Below are positions 1,985-21,412 of a stretch of DNA of 21,614 bases, one piece after another. The notes below the pieces were generated by a model, which did not search any database, had not been told where the DNA came from, and saw only the letters and a program-made list of their open reading frames with translations. Every line of letters begins with the position of its first letter. The stretch's first letter is position 1. Location: positions 1 through 21,614 of the forward strand of contig JBAXOY010000046.1 of the NCBI GenBank assembly GCA_037133055.1. Reading direction: 5' to 3'. Source of the DNA: Chlamydiota bacterium. GTDB lineage: Bacteria > Auribacterota > Tritonobacteria > UBA1439. A program made the position numbers and the translations under genes.

Positions 1985-2011
1985 TTGCACCCTGTGATAC
2001 GGGGGTATTCC

Positions 2012-3121
2012 TTGAAGCGTCCTATTCGCATCGCCATAGCCGGCGTGGGCAACTGCGCCAGCTCTCTCATACAGGGCATCGAGCACTACCGCCGCCGCGG
2101 GGGCGCGGCCGGCGAGGGCTCGATCGGCCTGATGCACTGGGATATCGGGGGGTACACCCCCGCGGACATCGAGGTGGTGGCGGCGTTCGACATCGACAGG
2201 CGGAAGGTCGGGCGGCCTCTCCACGAGGCCATTTTCGCCAAGCCGAACTGCACCAAGACGATCGTCGCCGACATGCCCGCGAGCCCCGTGATCGTGCAGC
2301 CGGGACCGGTCCTCGACGGGGTATCCCCCCACATGAAGGACTACGACAACGACAGGGTGTTCCTCCCCTGCGACCGCCCCCCGTGCGACGTCGGCAAGGT
2401 CCTCGCGGAGAGCGGCGCGGAAATATTCCTCAACTATCTCCCCGTGGGCTCGCAGAAGGCCGTCGAGTTCTACGCCGGATGCTGTCTCTCGACCGGGGTG
2501 AGTCTCGTCAACTGCATGCCGGTCTTCATCGTCTCGGACAAGGGGTGGGCGCGGAAGTTCTCCGAGAAGGGGATCCCGATCGTGGGGGACGACATAAAGG
2601 CGCAGGTGGGGGCTACGATCGTCCACCGGACCCTCGCCAGGCTCTTCGACGACCGCGGGGTCAAACTCGACCGGACCTACCAGCTCAACACCGGCGGCAA
2701 CACGGATTTTCTGAACATGCTGAACCAGGACCGCCTCAAGCTGAAGAGGATATCGAAGACCGAGGCGGTCCAGTCGCAGCTCTCCACGCCGCTCGATAAA
2801 GACGACATCCACATCGGCCCCTCGGACTACGTCCCCTGGCAGAAGGACAACAAGGTCTGCTTCATCAGGATGGAGGGGCGCGGGTTCGCGGGGGTGGCGA
2901 TGCACATCGAGCTGAGGCTTTCCGTCGAGGATTCCCCCAACAGCGGCGGCGTGTCGATCGACGCCATCCGCTGCTGCAGGGTCGCGCGGGAGAGAAAAAT
3001 CGGCGGCCCGCTCGACGCCGTCTGCGCCTACACGATGAAGCACCCGCCGAAACAGATGCCCGACACCCTGGCCCGCGAGCTCCTCCAGCGCTTTATCACC
3101 GGAGAGACGCCGGCGCGCTAG
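2012..3121 (+). CDS. ino1: Inositol-3-phosphate (myo-inositol-1-phosphate) synthase
   Basis: IAIAGVGNCASSLIQG, AAFDID.RKVG, NYLPVGS, GDDIKAQVGATI.HR, YQLNTGGNTDFLNM, HIGPSDYVPW, VEDSPNSGG, MKHPP. Likely TTG start at 2012 with GGGGG RBS. Confidence 0.96.
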   Translation: MKRPIRIAIAGVGNCASSLIQGIEHYRRRGGAAGEGSIGLMHWDIGGYTPADIEVVAAFDIDRRKVGRPLHEAIFAKPNCTKTIVADMPASPVIVQPGPVLDGVSPHMKDYDNDRVFLPCDRPPCDVGKVLAESGAEIFLNYLPVGSQKAVEFYAGCCLSTGVSLVNCMPVFIVSDKGWARKFSEKGIPIVGDDIKAQVGATIVHRTLARLFDDRGVKLDRTYQLNTGGNTDFLNMLNQDRLKLKRISKTEAVQSQLSTPLDKDDIHIGPSDYVPWQKDNKVCFIRMEGRGFAGVAMHIELRLSVEDSPNSGGVSIDAIRCCRVARERKIGGPLDAVCAYTMKHPPKQMPDTLARELLQRFITGETPAR

Positions 3122-3504
3122 GAGCCTGCCCGATAGCCCGCCATCGCCACGCGCACCGCCTCTGTGATTTTCTCTCCGTCCACGCCATCCTTGGAAAGAA
3201 ACCCCGCCGCCCCGAGCCGCACCGCCTCGCCGGCGAGCGCCCCGCCTTCTCCGCCCGAAAGCAGTATGACCGGAACGGCAGGGTGCGCGGCCGCGAGCCG
3301 TCTCAGCGTGTCGATCCCCCAGCTGTCCGGGAGCGTGAGGTCGAGCAGCACCGCGTCGACACCCCCCGCCGCGAGACGCGCGAGGGCCGCGGAGAGGCGG
3401 TCGACCCACTCAATATCGAGCGCGTGCGCCGCGAACTCCACGATGAGCCGCGCCTGAAGGCGGCTGTCCTCGACGAGGAGGACCCTCGGCCTTCGCGGGC
3501 TCAT
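3118..3504 (-). CDS. Single-domain response regulator (receiver)
   Basis: VLLVEDS, LLDLTLPDS.G, PVILLSG, GAAGFLSK receiver motifs; ATGA overlap with the upstream receiver gene. Confidence 0.9.
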   Translation of the reverse strand: MSPRRPRVLLVEDSRLQARLIVEFAAHALDIEWVDRLSAALARLAAGGVDAVLLDLTLPDSWGIDTLRRLAAAHPAVPVILLSGGEGGALAGEAVRLGAAGFLSKDGVDGEKITEAVRVAMAGYRAGS

Positions 3505-3950
3505 CCGCCCTCCCCCGCCATGCCGCCCCTGCCCGGAAGCCGCGCGATGCCGAGCCAGAACTCGGCGATGCCCCGCACCACGGCGACGAGCCCCTTGATG
3601 GTGGAGGGTTTTACGATGTAGCAGTTCGCGTGGAGCTCGTACGCCCGCTCAATATCCTCCTCGGCCTCCGAGCCGGTGAGCACGATGACCGGGATCCGCT
3701 TCAGCGCCACGTCGGCTTTCATCTCCGCGAGAAACTCCAGCCCGTTCTTCCGGGGCAGGTTGAGGTCGAGCAGGATCAGATCGGGGAGCGCCGCGCCCGC
3801 GGCGCGAAGGGAGGCGAGCGCCGCCGCCCCGTCCCCGGCCACGCGCAGGGACGCGGCGATCCGTTCCTCTTTCACGATCTCCATGAGGAGCCGCACATCG
3901 CCGGGATTGTCCTCCACGAGCAATAGGGTCACCGCCTGTTTCGCTCTCAT
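3501..3950 (-). CDS. Single-domain response regulator, Rcp1-like
   Basis: Start at ATG 3950 (MRAKQAVTLLLVEDNPGD), overlapping the kinase stop. PDLILLDLNLPRKNG, LKRIPVIVLTGS, AYELHANCYIVKP and FW motifs match Rcp1-type receivers. Confidence 0.92.
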   Translation of the reverse strand: MRAKQAVTLLLVEDNPGDVRLLMEIVKEERIAASLRVAGDGAAALASLRAAGAALPDLILLDLNLPRKNGLEFLAEMKADVALKRIPVIVLTGSEAEEDIERAYELHANCYIVKPSTIKGLVAVVRGIAEFWLGIARLPGRGGMAGEGG

Positions 3951-6900
3951 CCCGCCCCCCGCCCGTCGTACAAATCGCCCGCCCGATGTTCGGGCACGGT
4001 GAAGAAAAATGCCGCGCCGCGCCCCAGCTCCGACTCGACCCAGATCCTCCCCCCGTGCCGCTCGACGATCTTCTTGCAGAGGGCGAGGCCGATGCCGGTG
4101 CCGGGGTACTCCTCCCTGCCGTGCAGGCGCTGGAAGATCACAAATATCCTCTCGGCGAAGCGCGGCTCGATGCCGATCCCGTTGTCCCGGACCGAAAAGA
4201 GCCAGTCCTTTCCGGAGCGCGACGCGGAGAGATGGATGCGCGGCCACTCGGAGCTTCGGAACTTCAGGGCATTCCCGATCAGGTTCTGAAAGAGCTGGAC
4301 GAATTCCTGCTCGTCGATGCAGACGACCGGGAGCGGGTCATGGGTGACTGAGGCGCCGGACTCGGCGACCGCCACCGTGAGGTTCGCCAGCGCCCGTTCG
4401 AGGACCGCCTCGCAGTCGGTCGGCGCGAATGGCCTGGCGGTCGTCCCGAGCCGCGAGTACCCCAGGAGGTCGCTGATGAGGCTCTTCATGTGGCCCGCCC
4501 CCTCGACGGCGTAGCGGATGAACTCCGCCGCGTCCGCGCCGAGACGGTCCCGGTAGCGCTTCTCAAGGAGCTGCAGGAAGCTCGTCACCATCCTGAGCGG
4601 CTCCTGGAGGTCGTGGGAGGCGACATAGGCGAACTGCTCGAGCTCCTGGTTGGACCGTTTCAGGTCCCGGGCGGCCGTCCGGAGCTCCTCCTCGGCCCTG
4701 GACCTCGCCTCCTCGATCTCAAGCCCGTTGAGGGCGAACGCGATATCCCGGGCAAGCTCGCCGAAGAGCGCGCATTCCTCCTCGTCCGCGGCGAAGTCAG
4801 GGGGAAGCGCCACCGAAAGAAGGCCGTACACCCTGGCCCCGTGCCCGAGCCTTACGGTCATCGCCCCCTTCCGGTGGTAGCCTGATGCCATCCGGCATTC
4901 CGAACAGGAGGACGGGGGGTCCACGACGATAACCGGCTCGTGCCCCTCGAGCGCCCGCCGACCGCAATCGGGGAACTCGCCGCGCCTCATGCGCTCCACG
5001 AGCTCCCCAAAATCGCCGCCGACTCCCGACTCCGCGACCTCGCGGACCTCCCCCGAGTCGCTCAGCAGGGCAACCCAGGCGTTGATGTACCCCCGGTGCA
5101 TGACGAGGCTCTCGCACGCGCCCGCGATGAGCTTCGCGCGGTCCTTCTCGCGGGTGATGAGCTGGTCGACGCCGCGGATGGCGCGCAGCACGCGGGTGAG
5201 ATGCTCCATTCCCTTCTCCGCCCGCTTTCGCTCGGTGATGTCCACGTTGACCTCGGCGACGAGCCACTCGCCGCGCTCGTCGAGAAACGGCATGGTGGTG
5301 ACCTGCACGGGCCGGTTGCCCTCCCGCACCAGCGTCTCCTCGCTGACCACGGTCGTCTTTGACTTCAGCGCCCTCTGGATTCCGCATTCGGGGCAGGGTT
5401 CGCTCCGTCCCATGAAATAGTCGTAGCACTTCCGGCCGGCGGGATCCCCGTATGCCTTCTGCCATTCCGGGTCGATGTACTGGATGGTGTAGTCCGAGGC
5501 GATGATATCCAGGCCTGTCTTGGTCACGCCGAGGATGAACTCAATCTGCCGCTTCAGCCTGATGACCTCGTCTTCCGTGTGCTTCCTCTCGGTGATGTCG
5601 TCGAACAGGATGGCGAAGTGGCCCTTCCGAGGGCTGTAGGCGGAGATCGAGTACCACAGCCCCAGGAATTCGGAATAGCGCTCGACCCGCGCGGTCGCCC
5701 CCGTGAGCGCGACCCTTCCGTACAGGCCGATCCAGTCAAACTCCTCGCGCATGATCCCGGGCATCACCTCCGACGCCTTTCTCCCCACGATCGCGTCCCG
5801 TTGGAGCCGGGTGAGTTTCTCGAACACGCTGTTGACCTCGATGAAGACAAAATCGACCGCCTCCTCCTTCTCGTTCGTCACGATCCGGTGGTAGGCGAAG
5901 CCGGTGAGCATGTTGTCGAAGAGGGCGCGATAGTCCTCCTCGCTCCGCTTCACGACCTCCTGCGCCCGCTCCAGGGCGACGAGCATGCCGTTGATGGAGC
6001 CGGCGAGCCTCGACAGCTCGTCGCGCCCGCCGAGTATCACCCGCGACGAGAGATCGCCCGTGGTCCCGATGGCGTCGACCCGCGTGGTCAGCCGCCCGAG
6101 CGGCGAGAGGATAAGCCTCTCGATGATGATCAGGAACCCCGCGCTGAAGACGAGCCCCACCGCCAGCATCGACAGGACCAGATAGCGCAGCGTGTACAGC
6201 CCGCGCGTGTAGATGTCACGCGCGTTCTCGACGCGCAGGATGAGCGCGGGCTCGCCGAAAATATCGGGCAACGCCCGGTAGCCCGCCACCGCCCCCGCGC
6301 CCAGGGGCCGGATGAGATCCCCCGGAGAGCGGGCGAGCGACGCGCGGGCGAAGCGGAAATCCTCGGTGAGGCGCGGGGCCCGGAACGGCGTGAGCGAGAA
6401 CGCGACGTGCGTCAGGGATGAAAGGGCGCGCACCCTTTCGGGGTTGAGGGATCGCGCCATGAGGAGCGAGCCACGGATCGGGCCCTTCCCCTCGCCGCTG
6501 AGGATCGGTCGCGAGGCGAGGAGCACGGGACCGGAGGGAAGCATGACGATCCCCGCCACGCGGTCGCGGCCTGCGAGGTGGGCGGTCATGGGGCCGCCGC
6601 GGAGAAGGTGTTTCTCGAGCCCCTCGGGGAGCGGCGTCTTGACGCCGCGTGCCCTGTCGAACCCGGTCGCATAGAAGATCCGGCCCGAGGGTTCCGTGAA
6701 CACGATGGCGTCGATCTTGAGCGCGGCGAGGGTGACGTCGTTCAGGTTTTCCCGGGAGAACGCCTCGTTCCGGCCGCCGACGTACCCGCAGGTCTCGTCC
6801 CACCAGGCCCAGTCGCGGGTGACGAAATCGAGCTGCTCGACCTCGGCGGAGAGGGCATCCCGCACCCGGTTCAGATTCCTGACGACGCGCTCATCCTCGA

Positions 6901-7009
6901 TCCTGGCGAAGTTGCCGAGCAGGATGACGCGGGTGGCGACGTAGAAGACGGCTATCATGCAGATCAGCATGCCGCCGAAAACGGAGAGGACCTTCGCGCG
7001 CAGGGTCAT
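3947..7009 (-). CDS. Membrane sensor histidine kinase (TM-CHASE4-TM-HAMP-PAS-PAS-GAF-HisKA-HATPase)
   Basis: DWAWWDETC (CHASE4), GRDELSRLAGSINGML (HAMP), two DITERK PAS/PAC ends, GAF, FAYVASHDLQEPLR H-box, QLFQNLIGNALKF, DNGIGI, GTGIGLALCKKIVERHGG. Confidence 0.95.
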   Translation of the reverse strand: MTLRAKVLSVFGGMLICMIAVFYVATRVILLGNFARIEDERVVRNLNRVRDALSAEVEQLDFVTRDWAWWDETCGYVGGRNEAFSRENLNDVTLAALKIDAIVFTEPSGRIFYATGFDRARGVKTPLPEGLEKHLLRGGPMTAHLAGRDRVAGIVMLPSGPVLLASRPILSGEGKGPIRGSLLMARSLNPERVRALSSLTHVAFSLTPFRAPRLTEDFRFARASLARSPGDLIRPLGAGAVAGYRALPDIFGEPALILRVENARDIYTRGLYTLRYLVLSMLAVGLVFSAGFLIIIERLILSPLGRLTTRVDAIGTTGDLSSRVILGGRDELSRLAGSINGMLVALERAQEVVKRSEEDYRALFDNMLTGFAYHRIVTNEKEEAVDFVFIEVNSVFEKLTRLQRDAIVGRKASEVMPGIMREEFDWIGLYGRVALTGATARVERYSEFLGLWYSISAYSPRKGHFAILFDDITERKHTEDEVIRLKRQIEFILGVTKTGLDIIASDYTIQYIDPEWQKAYGDPAGRKCYDYFMGRSEPCPECGIQRALKSKTTVVSEETLVREGNRPVQVTTMPFLDERGEWLVAEVNVDITERKRAEKGMEHLTRVLRAIRGVDQLITREKDRAKLIAGACESLVMHRGYINAWVALLSDSGEVREVAESGVGGDFGELVERMRRGEFPDCGRRALEGHEPVIVVDPPSSCSECRMASGYHRKGAMTVRLGHGARVYGLLSVALPPDFAADEEECALFGELARDIAFALNGLEIEEARSRAEEELRTAARDLKRSNQELEQFAYVASHDLQEPLRMVTSFLQLLEKRYRDRLGADAAEFIRYAVEGAGHMKSLISDLLGYSRLGTTARPFAPTDCEAVLERALANLTVAVAESGASVTHDPLPVVCIDEQEFVQLFQNLIGNALKFRSSEWPRIHLSASRSGKDWLFSVRDNGIGIEPRFAERIFVIFQRLHGREEYPGTGIGLALCKKIVERHGGRIWVESELGRGAAFFFTVPEHRAGDLYDGRGAG

Positions 7010-7032
7010 GCGTGTGCCTCGGGGCCAGAGCC

Positions 7033-7061
7033 AGTATAGCGTGGTGATGAGGGGGAGTCAA
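7033..7061 (-). promoter_or_regulatory. Sigma70-type promoter of the kinase/receiver operon
   Basis: Minus strand TTGACT (7061-7056), 17 nt, TATACT (7038-7033). Confidence 0.7.
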
Positions 7062-7131
7062 CAGGCAGGCAGGCCCCCCCCAGGCAGGCCCACCCCACTG
7101 GCCATTCGTCTCTATCCTGTCGTCTCTATCC

Positions 7132-7160
7132 TTTACGCGCCACGCCGCCCGCGCTATACT
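7132..7160 (+). promoter_or_regulatory. Sigma70-type promoter of the CDP-alcohol phosphotransferase gene
   Basis: TTTACG (7132-7137), 17 nt, TATACT (7155-7160); ATG only 10 nt downstream and no Shine-Dalgarno. Confidence 0.6.
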
Positions 7161-7170
7161 GACCCCCGCC

Positions 7171-7884
7171 ATGATGACGTACACGGAGCTCGCGCGCCGC
7201 GGCGTGAACCGGTTCAAGGACTCGATCACGGGCATCCTCGTGCGCCGCGGGGTGTCCGCGAATGCCCTCACCCTCGCCGGGTTCGTCATCTCATGCCTCG
7301 CCGCCGCGTCTTTCTCCCTCGGATTGTTTCCCCTCGGCGGGATTCTGATCTTCTTCGCCGGGGCCTGCGACATCTTCGACGGGGCGGTGGCGAAGCGGAC
7401 GGGGCGGGTGACCGCCTTCGGGGGATTCTTCGACTCGTGCCTTGACCGCTATTCCGACGTCGTGCTGCTCGGGGGCGCGGGGCTCTACTACGCCGCGCAC
7501 GGCCCCCTGCGCAACACGGCGCTGGCGATCCTCGCCACCGGCGGCTCGATCCTCATAAGCTACTCGCGCGCCCGCGCGGAGAATATCGGGGTCTCCTGCG
7601 CGGTGGGATTCTGGGAGCGGTCCGAGCGCACGTTCATGATCATGATGGGGGGGCTGTTCTTCCGGATGCCGAGCATCCTGTGGGAGCTCGCACTCTTCGC
7701 GAACATCACCGCCGCGCACCGGATCCTGCACACCTGGCGGCGGATCGAGAATCCGTCGTGGCGGCCGCCGCGCATCCCGGTCCTCACCGACATCATCTTC
7801 TGGGAATATCCACGCTACTGCTGGCAGTACGACGTCTACGTGGGGCTCGGAATCATCGTGCCGCTGCTCCTGCCGATACGTTAG
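7171..7884 (+). CDS. CDP-alcohol phosphatidyltransferase, phosphatidylinositol-phosphate (PIP/AIP) synthase-like
   Basis: Signature DIFDGAVAKRTGRVTAFGGFFDSCLDRYSD. GVSANALT, SYSRARAE and VGFWERSER segments resemble PIP/archaetidylinositol-phosphate synthases. ino1 is nearby on the same strand. Confidence 0.85.
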   Translation: MMTYTELARRGVNRFKDSITGILVRRGVSANALTLAGFVISCLAAASFSLGLFPLGGILIFFAGACDIFDGAVAKRTGRVTAFGGFFDSCLDRYSDVVLLGGAGLYYAAHGPLRNTALAILATGGSILISYSRARAENIGVSCAVGFWERSERTFMIMMGGLFFRMPSILWELALFANITAAHRILHTWRRIENPSWRPPRIPVLTDIIFWEYPRYCWQYDVYVGLGIIVPLLLPIR

Positions 7885-14688: not shown

Positions 14689-17600
14689 TCAACGGGCGGT
14701 GTCGTGGAGGCGGGCGGCGCGGGCCTGGTGCATAAACGCCTCGAGCCGCGTGCTGTCGTCGATCCCCTTCTGGCCGTCGTAGGTCATGTTGAGCCAGGGA
14801 ATCTCCCTGAAATGCTCGCGGACCCTTTGCGAGACGGCGGCGGCGACCATCCCCGGCATGCAGGTGAACGGCATCGCGTTCACGATCCCCGTCGCCCCCC
14901 TCCGCATGTAATCGATCGCCTTGCCGATGGAGAGTATCGCCTCGCCCCCGAAGGTGTGGTGCAGGTAGGGGGCGCTCATGGCGAGCAGCTCCTCGATCCC
15001 CGTCTCGTGGAGGTTGAGGAGCATGCCGTCGAATATCCTGAGCAGCCGCGTCTCGTCGCGCTTCTGGACCTTCTGTTTGAGGTACCCCTTCACGAAGTCG
15101 ACGTGCCTTCCGGCGGCGAGGCTGTTCTCGAGATAGCGGTTCGTGGTGTAGAAAACCCACTCGGTGACCGGGGCGACCCACGCCTCGCCGCCGAGCCGCT
15201 CGATCAGGGCGACCAGGTCGTTATTGCAGAAGCGGTTGCTCCTGACGTAGATCTCACCCACCACTCCGATGACCGGCTTCCTCCCCCCGCGACGGTCGAT
15301 GCGGAGGGAGCGGAAGATATCGCACACCTCCTCCATCCGGGCGAAGATATGGTCCCCTCCCCCCTCGACCCCCTTCACCAACAGGCGGAGCGACTCCTCG
15401 AACGCGGCGTTCGTCTCGCCGGAGACGGTCTCGTAGGGGCGGTGCTCGCGCAGGAGTTTCTCCAGGATGTCCACGGAGAGGAGGCCGCGCCAGGCGAGGC
15501 GCCTGAACTCGTTCCCGTTGACCCCGATCGGCGAGGCGTACGAATTGCTTGACTCCGGGGCGACGATGGGGACATCTTTGAGCCCGAGGTCGTCGAGGAT
15601 CATGCGATGCATCTGGGCGTACTGCCCGAAGCGGCAGGGGCCGGTCGCCGTGGGCATGAAGAAGGCGGCCGTCCGGTGGTCGAAGCCCGGCTCGAAGAGC
15701 TTCTTCAGCATGTCGCCCGTCGTGGTGATGAAGGGCAGGCACTCCCTCCCCGAGGCGAACTGCCTCCCGATCTCGATCGTGCGCTCGTCCGACTCCGGCA
15801 GCGGCTCGGACGGGTACCCGAAGGCGCGCACGGCGGCGCTGAACGCGTGGGCGTGAAGCGACATCTGCGGGATATAGAGAACCCTCTTGTGCTTCGCCGC
15901 GACGTGCCGGAATTTCCAGTCGCGCGCCGGCGGGGCCGCGCGGTGGTTGGCGAGGCTGTCGAGGAACGCCTCGCAGCGTGTGATGATACCCGCGTCGGCG
16001 CTGTGCTCGTCGATCTCGAGCTGGAGGTAGGGCTTCCCCTCCATCTTGCTGCGGAAAAAGTGCTCGATGAACGAGTCGGGCCCGCATTTGAAGTTCGAGA
16101 GGTAGACCGCGAAGAGGCGCGGGTCGTTCCGCACGACATGGGCGGAGGAGAGGAGCCGCTGCCCGTACCGCCAGAACATGTTCGGGAACTGGTCATAGAT
16201 GTCCACCGTGTCCGTGTCGAGGAAGTCCTGGGGCAGCGGCGTCACCCCGAGCTCCCGGAGCTTCCGGGGCAGGTTGAGATTGACCCCCGCGTCGTAGTTG
16301 TTGTAGGGCCTCCCCAGGATGACCGTCGCCCGCTCCTCCGGGCCGAGCGCCGCGAGCGCCTTCTCTCCCCGCGCCCGCATCTCCCGCCTGAAGCGGTTCT
16401 GCGCATCCTCGGCGGCCGCGAGCGCCTCCCGCACCTGCCGGGATGATACCCCCATCGAACGCCCCATCGTCTTCAGGGACTTCTCGATGCTCCTCCTCCC
16501 CCGCAGGTACATGAGCGGGGGATCGAGGATCTTCACGCGGGCGCGATCGAGGTCAAGCGTGGAGCGGAGTATATACGGGATCGCCTGGACGAGCGGGCAG
16601 CAGTAGCTCTGGGATATGCGCGTCCGGGACCGCGCCATGCTGATCACGCTCGGGAGGAACAGGTAGTCGGGTTTCTCATCGAGGAGGCTCATCACGTGCC
16701 CGTGCACGATCTTGACGGGGAAACAGGTCTCCGTGGCCACCCTCTCCACAGAGGAGTGTATGATGCCGGGGTTGGTGCACTCCGAGAGCACCACCTCGAA
16801 GCCGAGCGCCCTGAAAAACCCCAGCCAGTACGGGAAGAAGTCGTACAGGTGCAAAACGCGGGGGATCCCGACACGCCCGCGCGGGGCCCCGGGAGGGGCA
16901 TAGCGGCGCACCGCGTCAAGCTCCTTCTGCGTCTCCCCCTCGCCCGCATCGAGGAGCAGCCGTTCCCGCGCGGCGAAATGGTCGGGGATGCCCCGGGCCC
17001 TCCGGTCGTCGTCCACCTCGTACCGCTCGCACCGCGCCCCGTAGTGGAGAGGGCGCTCGTCCCCGAATCTGACCCTCCTGATCTCGCAGAGGTTGTCGCA
17101 CCCCTTGCAGGTGAACGAGGTCGATTCACATACCCTCGCCGACAGGTCGAAGCCGTGGAATTTCTTCCCTCCCTCCCCCCTGGTCTCCCGCATCGCGAGA
17201 AGCGCGGCGCCGATCGCCCCGGTGACATCGTGGTGCGGGGGGACGATGATCCTCTTGCCGGTCACCTTCTCGAACGCCGCGACCACGCCCCGGTTCCAGG
17301 CGACCCCCCCCTGGAAGAAGATGACATCCCCGACCCGCCGGTCCCCGACGACCTTGTTCAGGTAGTTGTGCACGATGGAGTAGGCAAGCCCCGCCACGAG
17401 GTTCTTCTTGCTCAGGCCCTTCTGCTGGTGCGCCACGAGGTCGGACTCCATGAAGACCGTGCACCGGTCGCCGAACCGCCCGGGGTTTTCCGCCTGGAGG
17501 GCGAGCCGCCCGAACTCCTCTTCGATGCGTATGCCGAGCTTCTCGGCCTGCTCCTCGAGGAACGACCCCGTGCCCGCCGCGCAGACCTTGTTCATCTCGA

Positions 17601-18957
17601 AGTCCACGACGGCGCCGCGGTTCAGGCTGATGTACTTCGAGTCCTGGCCGCCGATCTCGAAGATGGTGTCGACGTCGGGGTTCAGATGGATCGCGGCGGT
17701 CGCCTGGGCGGTGATCTCGTTGCGGACCACGTCCGCGCCGATGTAATCGCCCGTGAGATGTCGGCCCGACCCGGTGGTCCCCACGCCGCAGACGCGGACG
17801 TTCCGCCCGATCTCGTCGCCCACTTCCTTCAGGCCCTGTCTCACCGCCTCCAGCGGCCTCCCCGCGGTGGGCAGGTAACGCCGGGCGAGCACGGCCCCCC
17901 CGGGGTCGATGACGACCACGTTCGTCGAGAGCGAGCCTATGTCGACCCCGACATAGGCCTCCGAAGGCTCCGCGGTGCACGCGGGGAGCCGCTTCACCGC
18001 GACATGGCCCGCCTCCTCCCGCGCATCGAGGCGCAACGGCTCGCTCCCGGCGCGCTCCGCGCGCGCTGACCCGAAATAGCTCGCGACCGCCTCATGCCCC
18101 CTGAAGCGGGCGGCGTTCTCGAAGCCCTGCTCCGCCGCGAAGAGCGCCGCGCCGATCGCCCCCATGGTCGCATGATGAAGAGGGACGATCATCTCCCCGC
18201 GCCGGAGCCCGAGCACGTCCTCGAACGCCCGCACCACGCCCGCGTTCGCCGCCACGCCGCCCTGGAAGACGATGGGCGGGGTGAATGTCCTCCCCTTCCC
18301 GACGTTGCTCCTGAAGCTGCGCGCGACGGCCCAGCAGAGCCCCGCGACGATATCGTAGTCGGGGGCGCCGATCTGCTGGAGGTGGATCATGTCCGACTTG
18401 GCGAAGACCGAGCACCGCCCGGCGATGCGCGGGGGGCGCTGCGACCTCAGGGCACATTCTCCGAACCCCTCCTCGATCGAGAGGCCGAGCCGGCTCGCCT
18501 GCTGGTCGAGGAACGACCCGGTGCCGGCCGCGCAGATGGTGTTCATCGAGAAGTCCTCGATGATCCCGCGGTTCGATGCGGGGTCATCGCGGACGAAGAT
18601 CAGCTTCGAGTCCTCCCCCCCCATCTCGATAATCGTTCGCGCGCCAGGGCAGAGCCGCGCCGCGCCGCGCGCCTGGGCGATGATCTCGTTCACGAAGTCC
18701 GCCCCGATGATCTCGCAGGCGAGCTTGCCCCCGGAGCCCGTTACGGCGAACGCCCGGATGCGCTCGATCGGGTGCTCCCGCAGAAGGTCGCGCAGCATCG
18801 TCTCCATCACGGAGAGCGGGTGTCCTCGGTGCCTGAGGTACCGGTCGCCGCGCAGCGCGCCTCGGGAATCGACGAGCGCCGTCTTCACGCTCACCGAACC
18901 CACGTCGATGCCGACGAAGAGAGTGTCCCCGTTCCGGTGCGCAGCCCCGGTGGTCAT
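14689..18957 (-). CDS. PlsA/Ger-type fused acyl-CoA dehydratase activase-reductase (plasmalogen synthase / glycerol ester reductase homologue), 1422 aa
   Basis: Start ATG 18957 with GGAG RBS. Two BcrAD/BadFG activase domains (GIDVGS..TGSG..GGEDSK..MNTICAAGTGSFL..RCSVF; GVDIGS..TGSG..GGQDSK..MNKVCAAGTGSFL..RCTVF), linker CKGCDNLC..CERY, DUF2229-like (GIPR, CFPVK, YCCP, FKCGPD, IDEH) and dehydratase-like C-terminus (ECLP, GPCRFGQY, VGEIYVR, PFTCMPG). Confidence 0.88.
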   Translation of the reverse strand: MTTGAAHRNGDTLFVGIDVGSVSVKTALVDSRGALRGDRYLRHRGHPLSVMETMLRDLLREHPIERIRAFAVTGSGGKLACEIIGADFVNEIIAQARGAARLCPGARTIIEMGGEDSKLIFVRDDPASNRGIIEDFSMNTICAAGTGSFLDQQASRLGLSIEEGFGECALRSQRPPRIAGRCSVFAKSDMIHLQQIGAPDYDIVAGLCWAVARSFRSNVGKGRTFTPPIVFQGGVAANAGVVRAFEDVLGLRRGEMIVPLHHATMGAIGAALFAAEQGFENAARFRGHEAVASYFGSARAERAGSEPLRLDAREEAGHVAVKRLPACTAEPSEAYVGVDIGSLSTNVVVIDPGGAVLARRYLPTAGRPLEAVRQGLKEVGDEIGRNVRVCGVGTTGSGRHLTGDYIGADVVRNEITAQATAAIHLNPDVDTIFEIGGQDSKYISLNRGAVVDFEMNKVCAAGTGSFLEEQAEKLGIRIEEEFGRLALQAENPGRFGDRCTVFMESDLVAHQQKGLSKKNLVAGLAYSIVHNYLNKVVGDRRVGDVIFFQGGVAWNRGVVAAFEKVTGKRIIVPPHHDVTGAIGAALLAMRETRGEGGKKFHGFDLSARVCESTSFTCKGCDNLCEIRRVRFGDERPLHYGARCERYEVDDDRRARGIPDHFAARERLLLDAGEGETQKELDAVRRYAPPGAPRGRVGIPRVLHLYDFFPYWLGFFRALGFEVVLSECTNPGIIHSSVERVATETCFPVKIVHGHVMSLLDEKPDYLFLPSVISMARSRTRISQSYCCPLVQAIPYILRSTLDLDRARVKILDPPLMYLRGRRSIEKSLKTMGRSMGVSSRQVREALAAAEDAQNRFRREMRARGEKALAALGPEERATVILGRPYNNYDAGVNLNLPRKLRELGVTPLPQDFLDTDTVDIYDQFPNMFWRYGQRLLSSAHVVRNDPRLFAVYLSNFKCGPDSFIEHFFRSKMEGKPYLQLEIDEHSADAGIITRCEAFLDSLANHRAAPPARDWKFRHVAAKHKRVLYIPQMSLHAHAFSAAVRAFGYPSEPLPESDERTIEIGRQFASGRECLPFITTTGDMLKKLFEPGFDHRTAAFFMPTATGPCRFGQYAQMHRMILDDLGLKDVPIVAPESSNSYASPIGVNGNEFRRLAWRGLLSVDILEKLLREHRPYETVSGETNAAFEESLRLLVKGVEGGGDHIFARMEEVCDIFRSLRIDRRGGRKPVIGVVGEIYVRSNRFCNNDLVALIERLGGEAWVAPVTEWVFYTTNRYLENSLAAGRHVDFVKGYLKQKVQKRDETRLLRIFDGMLLNLHETGIEELLAMSAPYLHHTFGGEAILSIGKAIDYMRRGATGIVNAMPFTCMPGMVAAAVSQRVREHFREIPWLNMTYDGQKGIDDSTRLEAFMHQARAARLHDTAR

Positions 18958-19790
18958 CTCCTGCTCCCCGTTGTTTTTGTGTGCCCCAGCGCCGCGTTGA
19001 GGCTCCCCATCCGGTACCCCTCGAGGTCGGCGGAGACCGAGTGGAAGCCCAGGCGCTTCAGTTCCCGCGACACCGGCCCCCTCAGGCGGGGGAAGAAGAG
19101 CCTTCCCACCTGGGCGGGGTCCACTTCGATCCTGGCCGTCCCGCCGTCCGCGCGCACGCGGACCCGCCTGAATCCCCGCGCCCGCAGCAGCTCCTCCGCC
19201 CGCTCGACGCGGCGCAAAATCCCGCGATCTATCGGCTGGCCGTAGGGCACGCGCGACGCGAGGCAGGCCATCGGCTCGCGGTCCCACCCGGGAAGGCCGA
19301 GCCGGCGAGAGAGAGCGCGGACGTCGCGCCGGGTGAACCCCGCGTCCCTGAGCGGGCTCACCGCGCGCATCTCCCGCGCGGCCCGCTCCCCGGGGCGGTA
19401 ATCGCCGAGGTCGTCCCGCTGCGACCCCAGGGCGATGCGGGCGATCCGTTCCCGGGCCGCGAGGGCCCGCAGCGCGCCGAGCAGTTCGCGCTTGCACCAG
19501 TAGCACCGGTCCGCGGGGTTGCGGGTGAACCGCGCATCATCGAGCTCAAAGGATTTGATGACGCGATGCCGGACTCCGAGCTTCCGCGCGAGGGCGCGCG
19601 CCTGTTTCCGCTCCGCGGCGGGGAATGTGGGGGAGTCGGCCGTCACGGCGAGCAGGCGCCGGCCGAGCACGGGGGCGGCGACCGCGAGCAGCAGCGTGCT
19701 GTCCACGCCGCCGGAGTAGGCGACGAGCAGGCTCCCGTAGGAGGAGATGATCCTTCTCAGCCGTTCATGTTTTTCGGTCAGCGTGATCAT
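18954..19790 (-). CDS. larE: LarE-like ATP-dependent sulfur transferase (PP-loop)
   Basis: AYSGGVDS, NPADRCYWCK, DDLGDYRPG, SPL, CLASRVPYG, VRVR, DLEGYRMGSLN. Start ATG 19790; ATGA overlap with the PlsA/Ger gene. Confidence 0.9.
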   Translation of the reverse strand: MITLTEKHERLRRIISSYGSLLVAYSGGVDSTLLLAVAAPVLGRRLLAVTADSPTFPAAERKQARALARKLGVRHRVIKSFELDDARFTRNPADRCYWCKRELLGALRALAARERIARIALGSQRDDLGDYRPGERAAREMRAVSPLRDAGFTRRDVRALSRRLGLPGWDREPMACLASRVPYGQPIDRGILRRVERAEELLRARGFRRVRVRADGGTARIEVDPAQVGRLFFPRLRGPVSRELKRLGFHSVSADLEGYRMGSLNAALGHTKTTGSRR

Positions 19791-19861
19791 GCGTGTATCC
19801 GCACGCGAAGCGTCGGGGGGGCGGATCTGCGGCCCGGGAAGGCGGGGATGCGCGCCCCCCC

Positions 19862-20491
19862 TCACCCGGCGCCGTCGAGGATCTGGATATTCAAGGCCGC
19901 GGGGTCGAGGAATTGCTCCCAGCTCACAAAGACCCCGCGCCTGAAGGCGATCTGGTTGAAGGGCGACCACCGGGGTTTCTTCGGCTGCCTCAGCAGGCCC
20001 ATGCCGGACATCTCGAGGGTCTTCTCGCCCTTCATGAGGTTGCACTCCACGCAGCTGCACACGATGTTCGTCCAGGTGGTCGTTCCCCCGAGTCGCCGGG
20101 GGACGACGTGGTCAAGGTTGAGCTCCTGCTCCCTGAAGGAGCGGCCGCAGTACTGGCAGGTGCTCCTGTCCCGGAGATAGATGTTCCTCCGGGTCAGCTT
20201 CACCTCCCTCGCGGGAAGGCGCTCGTAGGCGCGGAGGATGATGATCTCCGGAAGACGGATCCTCATCGTGACCGTGCCGATGAACGCCGCGCCGTTGCCG
20301 CCCCCCCACCGCATCTCCGTCCAGCGGGGGAAGTCGTACAGGTCGAACGAACCGTTCTCCCTGAAGACCACCTGTGCGGCGCCGCGGTACACGAGCGAAA
20401 ACGCCCTCCGCATCCCGCAGACGTGCACGGGCTGCCACAGGCGGTTCAACACAAGGACGCTTCGCGATAGGCCGGATTCATCCTGCTTCAT
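19862..20491 (-). CDS. HNH endonuclease (McrA-like, VLVLN-type)
   Basis: SVLVLN, LTRRNIYLRDRSTCQYCG, LNLDHVVPR..GG..TWTNIVCSCVECN..KG; start ATG 20491. Confidence 0.92.
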   Translation of the reverse strand: MKQDESGLSRSVLVLNRLWQPVHVCGMRRAFSLVYRGAAQVVFRENGSFDLYDFPRWTEMRWGGGNGAAFIGTVTMRIRLPEIIILRAYERLPAREVKLTRRNIYLRDRSTCQYCGRSFREQELNLDHVVPRRLGGTTTWTNIVCSCVECNLMKGEKTLEMSGMGLLRQPKKPRWSPFNQIAFRRGVFVSWEQFLDPAALNIQILDGAG

Positions 20492-20502
20492 AGGAGTGGC
20501 GT

Positions 20503-20532
20503 AGTATATCGCGGACGGAGGGTCGGAGTCAA
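20503..20532 (-). promoter_or_regulatory. Sigma70-type promoter upstream of the HNH gene (and possibly larE and plsA/ger)
   Basis: Minus strand TTGACT (20532-20527), 18 nt, TATACT (20508-20503); ATG 11 nt downstream and no Shine-Dalgarno. Confidence 0.6.
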
Positions 20533-20666
20533 ACGGATTCAAGACGAGCCCGGAACGCGGCCGGTTCCCGGAACCGCCGTGGAAGTCCGTTCGCCGGTCG
20601 GCGTGCCGCTTCCCCCGGGGGGAGAGCACCCGCCAGGGGAACCGGTGTCCGGTCGAGACGGGACGA

Positions 20667-20828
20667 CTACGCGCCTGACGCCGTCTCGCGATACGGCTCG
20701 GCGGAGTGCGCGCCCGAGGCGGTCTGCTTGTCGAGGCACCTGAGCAGCGTGCCCGCCGTCGGCCTGTACTCGCATCGGTCTTTCCTGATGCAATCCTCGC
20801 AATACTCGTGTGCCGCCTGCGCCGGCAT
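20667..20828 (-). CDS. Small Cys-rich hypothetical protein (53 aa)
   Basis: GGAGGGG RBS then ATG: MPAQAAHEYCEDCIRKDRCEYRPTAGTLLRCLDKQTASGAHSAEPYRETASGA*. CxxC-x5-C-x11-C pattern; same strand as neighbours; not in the ORF track. Confidence 0.55.
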   Translation of the reverse strand: MPAQAAHEYCEDCIRKDRCEYRPTAGTLLRCLDKQTASGAHSAEPYRETASGA

Positions 20829-20843
20829 CGTGCCCCTCCGGTT

Positions 20844-20892
20844 AAATCTCGGATTTCAGATCTCAAATCTCAGATCTCAAATCTGAAATCTC
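20844..20892. repeat. Heptamer tandem repeat (ARATCTC-like) x7
   Basis: aaatctc ggatttc agatctc aaatctc agatctc aaatctg aaatctc. Confidence 0.85.
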
Positions 20893-20935
20893 TCACCGGG
20901 CTATCATAGCTCACACCGCGGAGAAGTGAAAGGTT

Positions 20936-21412
20936 TTATTGCCTCCCGGCGGCGAGAAGGCCATACATCTCGTCAAGCGACTGGGGAGCGACCTTCGTCC
21001 CCGCCGTCACCGGCATGAAGTTGGTATCGCCCTGCCATCGCGGCACCACGTGGACGTGGACGTGGCCCGCGACGCCCGCGCCCGCGGCCTCCCCAAGGTT
21101 GATCCCGACGTTGAACCCCGCCGGGGAGAGCACGCGTTTCAGGAGCGCGACGGAATCCCTGACCATGACGATAAGCCCCTGGAGCTCCTCGACAGAAAGG
21201 TCCTCGATTCCGGCCGCATGCCTGAACGGGGCGACCATCAGGTGCCCGCCGTTATAGGGAAACCGGTTGAGCATCGAGAAGCAGGTCGCCGCCCGGGCGA
21301 TGATGTGGTTCGCGCGGTCGCCGCCGCCCCGGGGCTTGTCGCAGAAGATGCATCCCTCGGGCGCCCCCTGCCCGATATACGCGCTCCGCCACGGCGCCCA
21401 GAGATGTTCCAT
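20936..21412 (-). CDS. HIT family hydrolase (Fhit/Ap4A phosphorylase-like)
   Basis: LWAPWR, CIFC, LNRFPYNGGHLMVAP, GFNVGINLGEAAGAG, HVHVHVVPRW.GD.NFM. Confidence 0.94.
   Translation of the reverse strand: MEHLWAPWRSAYIGQGAPEGCIFCDKPRGGGDRANHIIARAATCFSMLNRFPYNGGHLMVAPFRHAAGIEDLSVEELQGLIVMVRDSVALLKRVLSPAGFNVGINLGEAAGAGVAGHVHVHVVPRWQGDTNFMPVTAGTKVAPQSLDEMYGLLAAGRQ

Follow-up and report, generated by a model that had tools for sequence, protein, structure and literature searches.

A candidate locus for ether-linked, membrane-spanning lipids with an associated Lol-like transport module in a freshwater Auribacterota genome

Branched members of the glycerol dialkyl glycerol tetraethers (brGDGTs) serve widely as temperature and pH proxies, and both their producers in anoxic lake water and the enzymes involved are unsettled. 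Bacterial homologues of archaeal Tes (GDGT-MAS) were proposed earlier for brGDGT synthesis (PMC8941075), and tes-gms and mss-gms clusters are known in bacteria (PMC11214058). A pathway-specific LolA/LolB pair has been proposed for the pigment flexirubin (PMC11885536). Here, we describe a window of 21,614 nucleotides, the entire 21.6-kb contig JBAXOY010000046.1 of assembly GCA_037133055.1, which carries a Tes homologue, a PlsA/Ger protein, a CDP-alcohol phosphatidyltransferase, ino1, a second radical S-adenosylmethionine (SAM) enzyme, and a five-gene Lol-like transport module. On balance, it appears probable that this locus makes and positions fatty-acid-based, ether-linked, membrane-spanning lipids resembling brGDGTs in an anaerobic diderm, a reading based on what the genes are, on ligand conservation, and on how often the genes co-occur and adjoin one another. 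Both the enzymes and the pathway proposed for them belong to known kinds, while the new elements are a transporter module that tracks tail-coupling enzymes, a candidate tailoring enzyme, and a complete freshwater locus from the Planctomycetes-Verrucomicrobia-Chlamydiae (PVC) group.

The host genome (G000; G and L numbers are labels of compared genomes and loci) comprises 2.99 Mb with 64% GC and is 92% complete. Its taxonomy, left open in the initial annotation of the window, was checked through its relatives: the nearest named locus (L052; Tes 77% identical, gene order identical) bears the label Candidatus Auribacterota, which NCBI places in the PVC group as a phylum, and a homologue sharing 75% identity with the second radical SAM enzyme bears the label Ca. 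Aureabacteria. Auribacterota members are described as fermenters that have an outer membrane and live in anoxic lake water (PMC9324843). Seven runs contain over a quarter of the stretch, all of them freshwater or lake metagenomes, from five studies.

Tail coupling and ether formation

The window Tes passes the NCBIfam cut-off of 450 bits (Table 1) and matches the MJ0619 structure (PDB 7TOL) at E 4e-140. All of the expected ligands are conserved (C38/C41/C62/H65, C104/C108/C111/H114, C129/C133/C136, and C368/C485/C500), with the rubredoxin motif C-X2-C-X20-C-X2-H, the Cys3His of the N-terminal cluster, and the radical SAM motif CX3CX2C all in place; the three C-terminal cysteines are invariant and by inference serve as metal ligands. 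M469 is the conserved equivalent of Met439, the labile methionine of MJ0619. At the position of MJ0619 Tyr459 the window protein has Phe489, and Phe is found in 7/7 class members aligned. Tyr459 is strictly conserved in archaea, and the Y459F variant of MJ0619 is still active in vitro (PMC9433317). The MJ0619 pocket is described in the same source as fit for inositol head groups and binds bacterial phosphatidic acid.

In a Tes tree of 57 rows, which omits four loci whose open reading frame (ORF) was not recovered, the ten archaeal rows form a clade with a Shimodaira-Hasegawa-like approximate likelihood ratio test (SH-aLRT) value of 100, and the window Tes lies outside it, in a clade that joins acidobacterial and metagenomic Tes (SH-aLRT 95). 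A search of the 92%-complete host genome for geranylgeranylglyceryl phosphate (GGGP) synthase (PF01884) gave 0 matches (the positive control was found in 7/14), making an isoprenoid substrate of Tes unlikely, and archaeal-type isoprenoid lipids were dropped as the product. A Mss-family gene was likewise not found there: with a profile made from 120 Mss-like proteins, no score exceeded 63 bits. With neither gene found, Tes is the sole tail-coupling candidate detected. The substrate is likely fatty-acyl, and there is good reason to expect that Tes couples fatty-acyl lipid tails.

The ether-forming candidate is a fused protein of 1422 aa with two PF01869 activase domains and PF09989 (DUF2229), the BBD architecture common to alkyl-ether producers, and it is encoded by a single-copy gene. 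Ger and PlsA, which form alkyl and vinyl ethers, respectively, lack a diagnostic motif and are inseparable by sequence (PMC13274423). The window gene groups with fused planctomycete plsA (SH-aLRT 98), apart from the split acidobacterial clade (SH-aLRT 100). The rows of this tree are uncharacterised homologues only. Because the window plsA clade differs from acidobacterial plsA, the link between tes and plsA likely formed more than once, and the cluster looks like a mosaic. The protein very probably makes some ether, and an alkyl ether is the somewhat favoured product.

A longer bacterial Tes paralogue of ~650-750 aa (L263, L264, L265, L297, L316-L320) is present in 60/151 Acidobacteriota and lacks the N-terminal cluster cysteines in the Tes tree alignment; it is a candidate enzyme for making ester-linked iso-diabolic acid in those Acidobacteria that lack Mss. 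Elsewhere, tes stands among other radical SAM genes. At L205:1448-11857, plsA/plsR diverge from tes, which is followed by three genes for B12-binding radical SAM enzymes, a candidate methylation or cyclisation cluster. The Methylomirabilis-labelled locus L075:6438-12236 encodes a B12 radical SAM protein, a lipid A-type acyltransferase, Tes, LolA, and a radical SAM/SPASM protein, and the window-type permease was not found in the genome of L075. Among close relatives, L352 (G007:C111:1-1415) is a partial second tes whose DNA is 93% identical to the window tes (neighbouring genes ~72%); the copy is found where a contig ends, next to low-GC sequence that includes a transposase-like ORF, and represents either a recent transfer between genera or a misassembly. 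At L038 (G006:C66), tes and plsA each align as two pieces, through either a frameshift or a gap in the alignment.

The transport module and its association with Tes

Divergent from tes, a run of five co-oriented genes on the plus strand (10635-14624) with overlaps of 4-8 nt encodes the transport module. Its first product is a lipoprotein in which Cys28, invariant in 15/15 aligned homologues, follows an N-terminal signal-like segment. The lipoprotein aligns with LolA (hhalign 98%, E 2.8e-13), and its atlas neighbours are partly DUF4292 (21-33% of members); the accessible text of PMC11885536 does not mention DUF4292 and gives no support for equating DUF4292 with LolB. The ATP-binding cassette (ABC) permease scores 46/362 bits against TIGR02212, under the cut-off; another locus in the genome scores 401, and a separate contig carries the canonical LolC/E together with its ATPase. 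In phylogenetic analysis, the permease forms its own clade (SH-aLRT 98), apart from the LolC/E of the genome and from MacB-like proteins. An insertion at the LolC hook position, called the hook by position and not by structure, is absent in 12/12 aligned module permeases and present in the LolC/E of the same genome.

The slot of the VTT/DedA protein is filled by a VTT protein in planctomycete modules also (G043, G227, G254) and by a membrane protein of 100-150 aa in Acidobacteriota. DedA proteins can act as flippases, and the window protein is predicted to flip or scramble lipids. Heterocyst glycolipids reportedly provide a precedent, with an ABC exporter of type VII-like form. Across 32 permease loci, the lipoprotein was found in 25 and LolA in 26, with profiles partly built from the same loci. 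A LolA tree does not separate module from housekeeping copies, 7/11 branches being open, and PMC11713862 contains nothing on LolA-type lipid carriers. From its composition and its associations, the module would more probably than otherwise handle the coupled lipid.

These associations were examined in 151 Acidobacteriota genomes searched for Tes, permease, PlsA/Ger, transferase, and ino1, with just 13 permease and three PlsA candidates scored per genome. The Tes family occurs in 88/151 genomes (close clade 21, mid clade 7, long paralogue 60; three genomes flagged as unpublished, G072, G095, and G192, enter the long-paralogue tallies, and G095 also the permease and transferase counts). The window-type permease is present in 55/88 Tes-family carriers versus 2/63 Tes-negative genomes, of which one has a Tes-positive genome as its sister and the other is an outlier that lacks the module. 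By clade, it accompanies close Tes in 19/21 genomes, mid Tes in 0/7, and the long paralogue in 36/60. PlsA/Ger is found in 20/21 genomes of the close Tes clade versus 9/130 other Acidobacteriota.

Physical linkage recurs outside the class as well. In three members of a distant acidobacterial class (G046, G047, G048), the order is tes-lipoprotein-permease-ATPase-small membrane protein-lolA in one direction, and in G041, G047, G048, and G049 a tes copy has the transferase gene immediately upstream. G041 also has lipoprotein-ATPase-membrane protein-lolA-plsA-plsR in a single run, with transferase-tes-permease on another contig. Overall, tes lies ≤10 kb from the permease in 8/55 genomes from ~3 lineages, and the transferase ≤10 kb from the permease in 13/57 Acidobacteriota, one being G095. 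Among non-family metagenome loci, plsA adjoins tes in 5/78 from three Tes clades, where ~0.3 would be expected at two copies per 4.5 Mb, and also in G107. The flank controls larE, HNH, HIT, mocA, and xdhC were found at 0/105 bacterial or metagenome tes loci, and none of the neighbours named here was found at the 46 archaeal tes loci. Taken together, linkage of Tes, PlsA/Ger, and the export module beyond their own lineage is supported.

In their own phylum, Tes orthologues are present in 7/7 same-family genomes, 1/1 of the same class, and 0/32 others. Tes and permease occur in the same 9/41 genomes, and the other 32 have neither, bar one weak C-terminal permease match. The tes gene stands beside the module-plsA half in 4/8 relatives (G004, G006, G008, and, with its partial tes copy, G007), and contig ends interrupt the block in 2/8. 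Synteny in relatives, which the initial annotation had put forward, was therefore found but does not discriminate: larE, HNH, and HIT are as syntenic as the cluster genes, so conservation within the family and class is uninformative on co-function and was dropped as proof of it. The claim of co-location and co-function is instead carried by cross-phylum co-occurrence and by adjacency with different flanks, and its inositol head group is not supported in the same way. In 121 Planctomycetota, Tes was found in four genomes and a strong permease orthologue in two, with G043 the only overlap; the association of Tes with the permease is thus not general. Two Tes-negative planctomycetes with the module (G227, G254) carry a Mss-family gene instead.

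Head group, second radical SAM enzyme, and surroundings of the locus

The best models for the transferase are archaetidylinositol phosphate (AIP) and phosphatidylinositol phosphate (PIP) synthase, both under their cut-offs (Table 1), while the PgsA model gives just 32 bits and a separate PgsA above cut-off is encoded elsewhere in the genome. Its best PDB matches are PIP synthases. R93, S130, Y131, R133, R135, R150, and R153 align with the inositol-phosphate pocket of the Mycobacterium tuberculosis enzyme (PMC6506517), and R184 is set at R195 by motif position only. The acceptor is likely inositol; the same pocket residues are equally present in 4/4 homologues from genomes with no ino1 match. 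In Acidobacteriota, the transferase is found in 90/151 genomes, including 56/57 permease carriers, and 69 of these 90 have no ino1 match. Overall, ino1 is present in 23/151 Acidobacteriota and in just 8/21 genomes of the close Tes clade. In G003 and G005 it directly precedes the transferase gene, whereas in G008, of the sister family, the two are on different contigs. As a result, ino1 is a peripheral member, linked only within the family, and the annotation of the lipids as inositol-headed is not established by these counts; an inositol head group on the coupled lipid is possible, with the balance somewhat against it. At L339 (G149:C42), ino1 and the transferase gene lie ≤4 kb from a long tes paralogue, near genes for an AMP-binding enzyme and a diacylglycerol (DAG)-kinase-like protein; similar blocks without ino1 occur in G052, G101, and G137.

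The second radical SAM enzyme (338 aa, PF04055) has extra C-terminal cysteines and no N-terminal extension, and within the class its gene follows tes wherever that side was assembled. It was ruled out as Gms, which has at least 400 aa and a ~100-aa N-terminal extension that the window protein lacks; the AhbD model gives it 72 bits, whereas the Gms-like gene after tes in G043 scores 204 bits. That gene, N-terminally extended and AhbD-like, follows a second tes copy at L305:8463-11976. The three nearest orthologues of the window enzyme are in G043, G227, and G254, each a genome with a permease-ATPase-VTT run. In G227, the gene directly follows a 455-aa radical SAM gene of the Mss family, whose family consensus agrees with six motif blocks that have been described for Mss (PMC13159169 supplement); the Mss label is drawn from these blocks, and block I of the G227 protein has Pro, not Asn. 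G254 has two Mss-family genes, and in G288 the gene adjoins fused plsA. Seven contigs are apparently common to the lists of second radical SAM and Mss-family homologues, which hints that the pair may recur. The enzyme is a candidate for lipid tailoring, and whether the coupled lipid is its substrate is close to evenly balanced, leaning slightly to the negative.

Every gene listed in the initial annotation is present as an open, intact ORF (Table 1). The transferase gene is convergent with the tes-radical SAM pair, and promoter-like sites lie 5' of tes, the transferase gene, and the kinase gene (seven detected versus 1.6 +/- 1.4 in shuffles). The hairpin between lolA and plsA is likely a terminator.

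Table 1. Features of the 21,614-nucleotide window
Feature	Position	Strand	Evidence or remark
ino1 (myo-inositol-1-phosphate synthase)	1985..3121	+	PF01658 E 2.5e-36; TIGR03450 418/638 bits
Histidine kinase and two response regulators	3118-7009	-	Absent from the initial annotation; between ino1 and transferase
CDP-alcohol phosphatidyltransferase, AIP/PIP-synthase subfamily	7171..7884	+	NF040950 (AIP synthase) 142/180; NF045883 (PIP synthase) 106/170
Second radical SAM enzyme, 338 aa	7881..8897	-	PF04055; overlaps tes stop
Tes / GDGT-MAS homologue	8894..10498	-	NF045702 573.6 bits
LolA-fold lipoprotein, predicted LolB-like acceptor	10635..11480	+	Lipobox Cys; hhalign to LolA
ABC permease, type VII (MacB/FtsX/LolC-fold)	11477..12574	+	PF12704 + PF02687
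ABC ATPase (LolD/MacB type)	12567..13238	+	PF00005; TIGR02211 213/308
VTT/DedA-family membrane protein	13231..13917	+	PF09335
LolA-family periplasmic carrier	13914..14624	+	PF03548 E 1.8e-18
Long hairpin between convergent lolA and plsA	14623..14690	.	ViennaRNA -35.3 kcal/mol, without shuffle control
Fused PlsA/PlsR (Ger-type, BBD), 1422 aa	14689..18957	-	2x PF01869 + PF09989
larE, HNH nuclease gene, HIT-family gene	18954-21412		Upstream of plsA; kept across class

The histidine kinase has CHASE4/HAMP/PAS/GAF domains, and both response regulators are single-domain proteins. This two-component system is present in G002, G004, and G007; G003 and G005 do not have it at that place, none was seen near the block in G008, and it was dropped as a member of the cluster. 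Contigs from a second sample (run X2, from a study shared with the possible source run) span the transferase/radical SAM/tes, tes/lipoprotein, and lolA/plsA junctions, and the identical gene order in G004, G006, and G008 argues against misassembly. A upp gene is present at 1164-1928 of the window, and two related Acidobacteriota (L261, L262) also have upp, there at 2-3 kb from tes, which is probably chance. Elsewhere, the host genome has 65 radical SAM matches in 3 Mb, several of them clustered (C9, C12, C17), including on C20 a B12 radical SAM gene that shares 35% identity with the one following tes in L205. It also has one FabH-type match, a DUF1571 lipoprotein (C1), and a gene resembling phosphatidylcholine synthase (C62).

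Proposed pathway, alternatives, and comparison with known systems

A working order of steps can be suggested from homology. The transferase would add a head group to CDP-diacylglycerol, with inositol-1-phosphate from Ino1 the likely acceptor in this lineage, and PlsA/Ger would then reduce ester to ether bonds, as judged from Ger of Thermotoga maritima and D. alkenivorans. Tes, whose cofactor ligands suggest radical SAM chemistry, would join the terminal carbons of two lipids, and the second radical SAM enzyme might, more speculatively, modify the coupled product. The DedA protein would move one head group across the membrane, a step that is needed if the product is made at the cytoplasmic face. 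Finally, by homology and gene linkage, the permease and ATPase would extract the lipid and pass it to LolA, from there to the LolB-like lipoprotein, and on to the outer membrane. A more ambitious version holds that, in diderm producers of membrane-spanning lipids, a dedicated and so far undescribed Lol-like pathway (hookless type VII ABC permease, ATPase, DedA protein or small flippase, LolA carrier, and LolB-like lipoprotein) accompanies either Tes or Mss, flips two-headed lipids, and delivers them to the outer membrane, that the 338-aa protein is a new tailoring enzyme, and that this lake lineage, with the full set at a single locus, makes inositol-headed branched tetraethers. In its entirety, this version would be rather doubtful on the present genomic evidence.

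An alternative possibility is that the five-gene module serves general envelope trafficking of lipoproteins or ordinary phospholipids, and that the lipid genes merely cluster with it, as is common for envelope genes, with no dedicated hand-over. The window LolA is the only PF03548 match in four genomes of the class (G000, G002, G004, G008) and may also serve as a general lipoprotein carrier; the module is common in Acidobacteriota (57/151) and usually unlinked from tes; two genomes of the same genus (G001, G002) split the block between tes and the module; and envelope genes, judged from ORF starts and not scanned (kdsB, kdsA, msbA-like, lpxB-like), flank the acidobacterial loci. We nevertheless regard general trafficking as unlikely, given that a canonical LolC/E above cut-off exists elsewhere in the genome, that the permease is nearly restricted to carriers of Tes or Mss, and that both Acidobacteriota checked (G045, G047) retain a second LolA elsewhere.

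It is also conceivable that the products are ester-linked diacid lipids in the case of Tes and plasmalogens or monoethers of a bilayer in the case of PlsA, so that the module serves a coupled lipid and no tetraether arises. The inseparability of Ger and PlsA sequences noted above leaves room for this, Bacillota with both activities produce tetraesters and mixed or vinyl ethers and no brGDGT (PMC13274423), and of the 36/60 genomes that pair the permease with the long Tes paralogue only two have PlsA, the same number as among all 60. Yet PlsA tracks the close Tes clade (20/21) and not the other Tes clades, and the BBD architecture is that of alkyl-ether producers, which makes this outcome quite improbable. 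It is highly improbable that the Tes clade acts on another hydrophobic substrate, such as a specialised lipid or pigment exported by the module in the manner proposed for flexirubin LolA2/LolB2 (PMC11885536): Tes-like genes do turn up in radical SAM clusters of other kinds, alongside LolA and an acyltransferase (L075), and Tyr459 is replaced by Phe in the class, but genes for fatty-acid or polyketide synthesis or for acyltransferases are absent from the window, Tes recurs with enzymes of phospholipid metabolism, and Y459F is active in vitro (PMC9433317).

Beyond the points already raised, several observations weigh against the production of coupled ether lipids by this locus and their transport by the module. 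Bacterial Tes activity is described as experimentally unconfirmed (PMC11868695; 10.64898/2026.06.23.733905), and at strict thresholds Tes is present in just 3/14 iso-diabolic-acid-producing Acidobacteria. Thermodesulfobacterial and planctomycete proteins of Ger-like architecture, from T. geofontis and Ca. Kuenenia, gave no ethers in Escherichia coli (PMC13159169 supplement). The hook recruits LolA in E. coli (PMC9457489), and the module permease is hookless. Most bacterial tes genes stand alone, with the permease at 2/105, the transferase at 2/105, and plsA at 5/105 loci; the seven mid-clade genomes have neither permease nor PlsA, 3/4 Tes-positive planctomycetes have no permease, and no window-type permease was found in the Methylomirabilis genome G042. 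The co-occurrence counts include kin that are not independent, Tes and PlsA could be coupled by nothing more than an anaerobic lifestyle, and the distribution of ino1 does not follow that of the Tes/transport system. In the window itself, larE is a gene unrelated to the lipid cluster, yet the plsA start overlaps its stop by 4 nt.

Should the locus act as proposed, it offers a compact gene set and names a non-acidobacterial freshwater candidate for brGDGT production. It also raises a question unaddressed in the literature found, namely how a two-membrane cell orients a two-headed lipid and to which membrane it sends it. As a genomic marker, the permease could point to producers of membrane-spanning lipids. 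The module is present in Terriglobia/Bryobacteraceae-type Acidobacteria, groups with cultured members, and is amenable to testing there. No published link of Tes or Mss to a Lol-like transporter and no paper giving lipid genes for Auribacterota was found in a search that covered neither subscription papers nor bioRxiv supplements; Auribacterota names had no match in the supplements of PMC11868695 and PMC11214058, the supplementary figures of the latter being probably unsearchable.

The closest described proposal is the diether-condensation route to brGDGT by Tes and PlsAR of Solibacter usitatus (PMC10087280), in which the two enzyme types are identical to those found here. The window differs in that its genes are clustered, that it belongs to a PVC-group lineage, and that it adds head-group and transport genes; the accessible text of that paper proposes no transporter. 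Relative to archaeal Tes/GDGT-MAS (MJ0619; PDB 7TOL/7TOM; PMC8941075, PMC9433317), the window Tes passes the family cut-off and keeps four metal sites and the labile methionine, but it falls outside the archaeal clade, has Phe at Tyr459, and comes from a host with no GGGP synthase match. The PlsA/Ger protein resembles Ger (T. maritima Tmari_0479, D. alkenivorans) and PlsA/PlsR (PMC13159169) as a fused protein of ~1420 aa with two activase domains and DUF2229, a likeness of architecture and not of direct sequence comparison, and its gene stands in a cluster with Tes, not with Mss. The second radical SAM enzyme shares with Gms, the synthase of glycerol monoalkyl glycerol tetraethers (GMGTs) (PMC11214058), a position beside tes or a Mss-family gene, while Gms alone has the N-terminal extension and the AhbD-like core. 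Lastly, the transport module has the type VII ABC fold, LolA carrier, and LolA-fold lipoprotein of LolABCDE (PMC9457489) and of flexirubin LolA2/LolB2 (PMC11885536), and it is set apart from both in four ways: it has only one permease, which is hookless and forms a clade by itself; its operon includes a DedA protein or a small membrane protein; the genome encodes a canonical LolC/E at a different locus; and it is linked to enzymes of lipid tail coupling.

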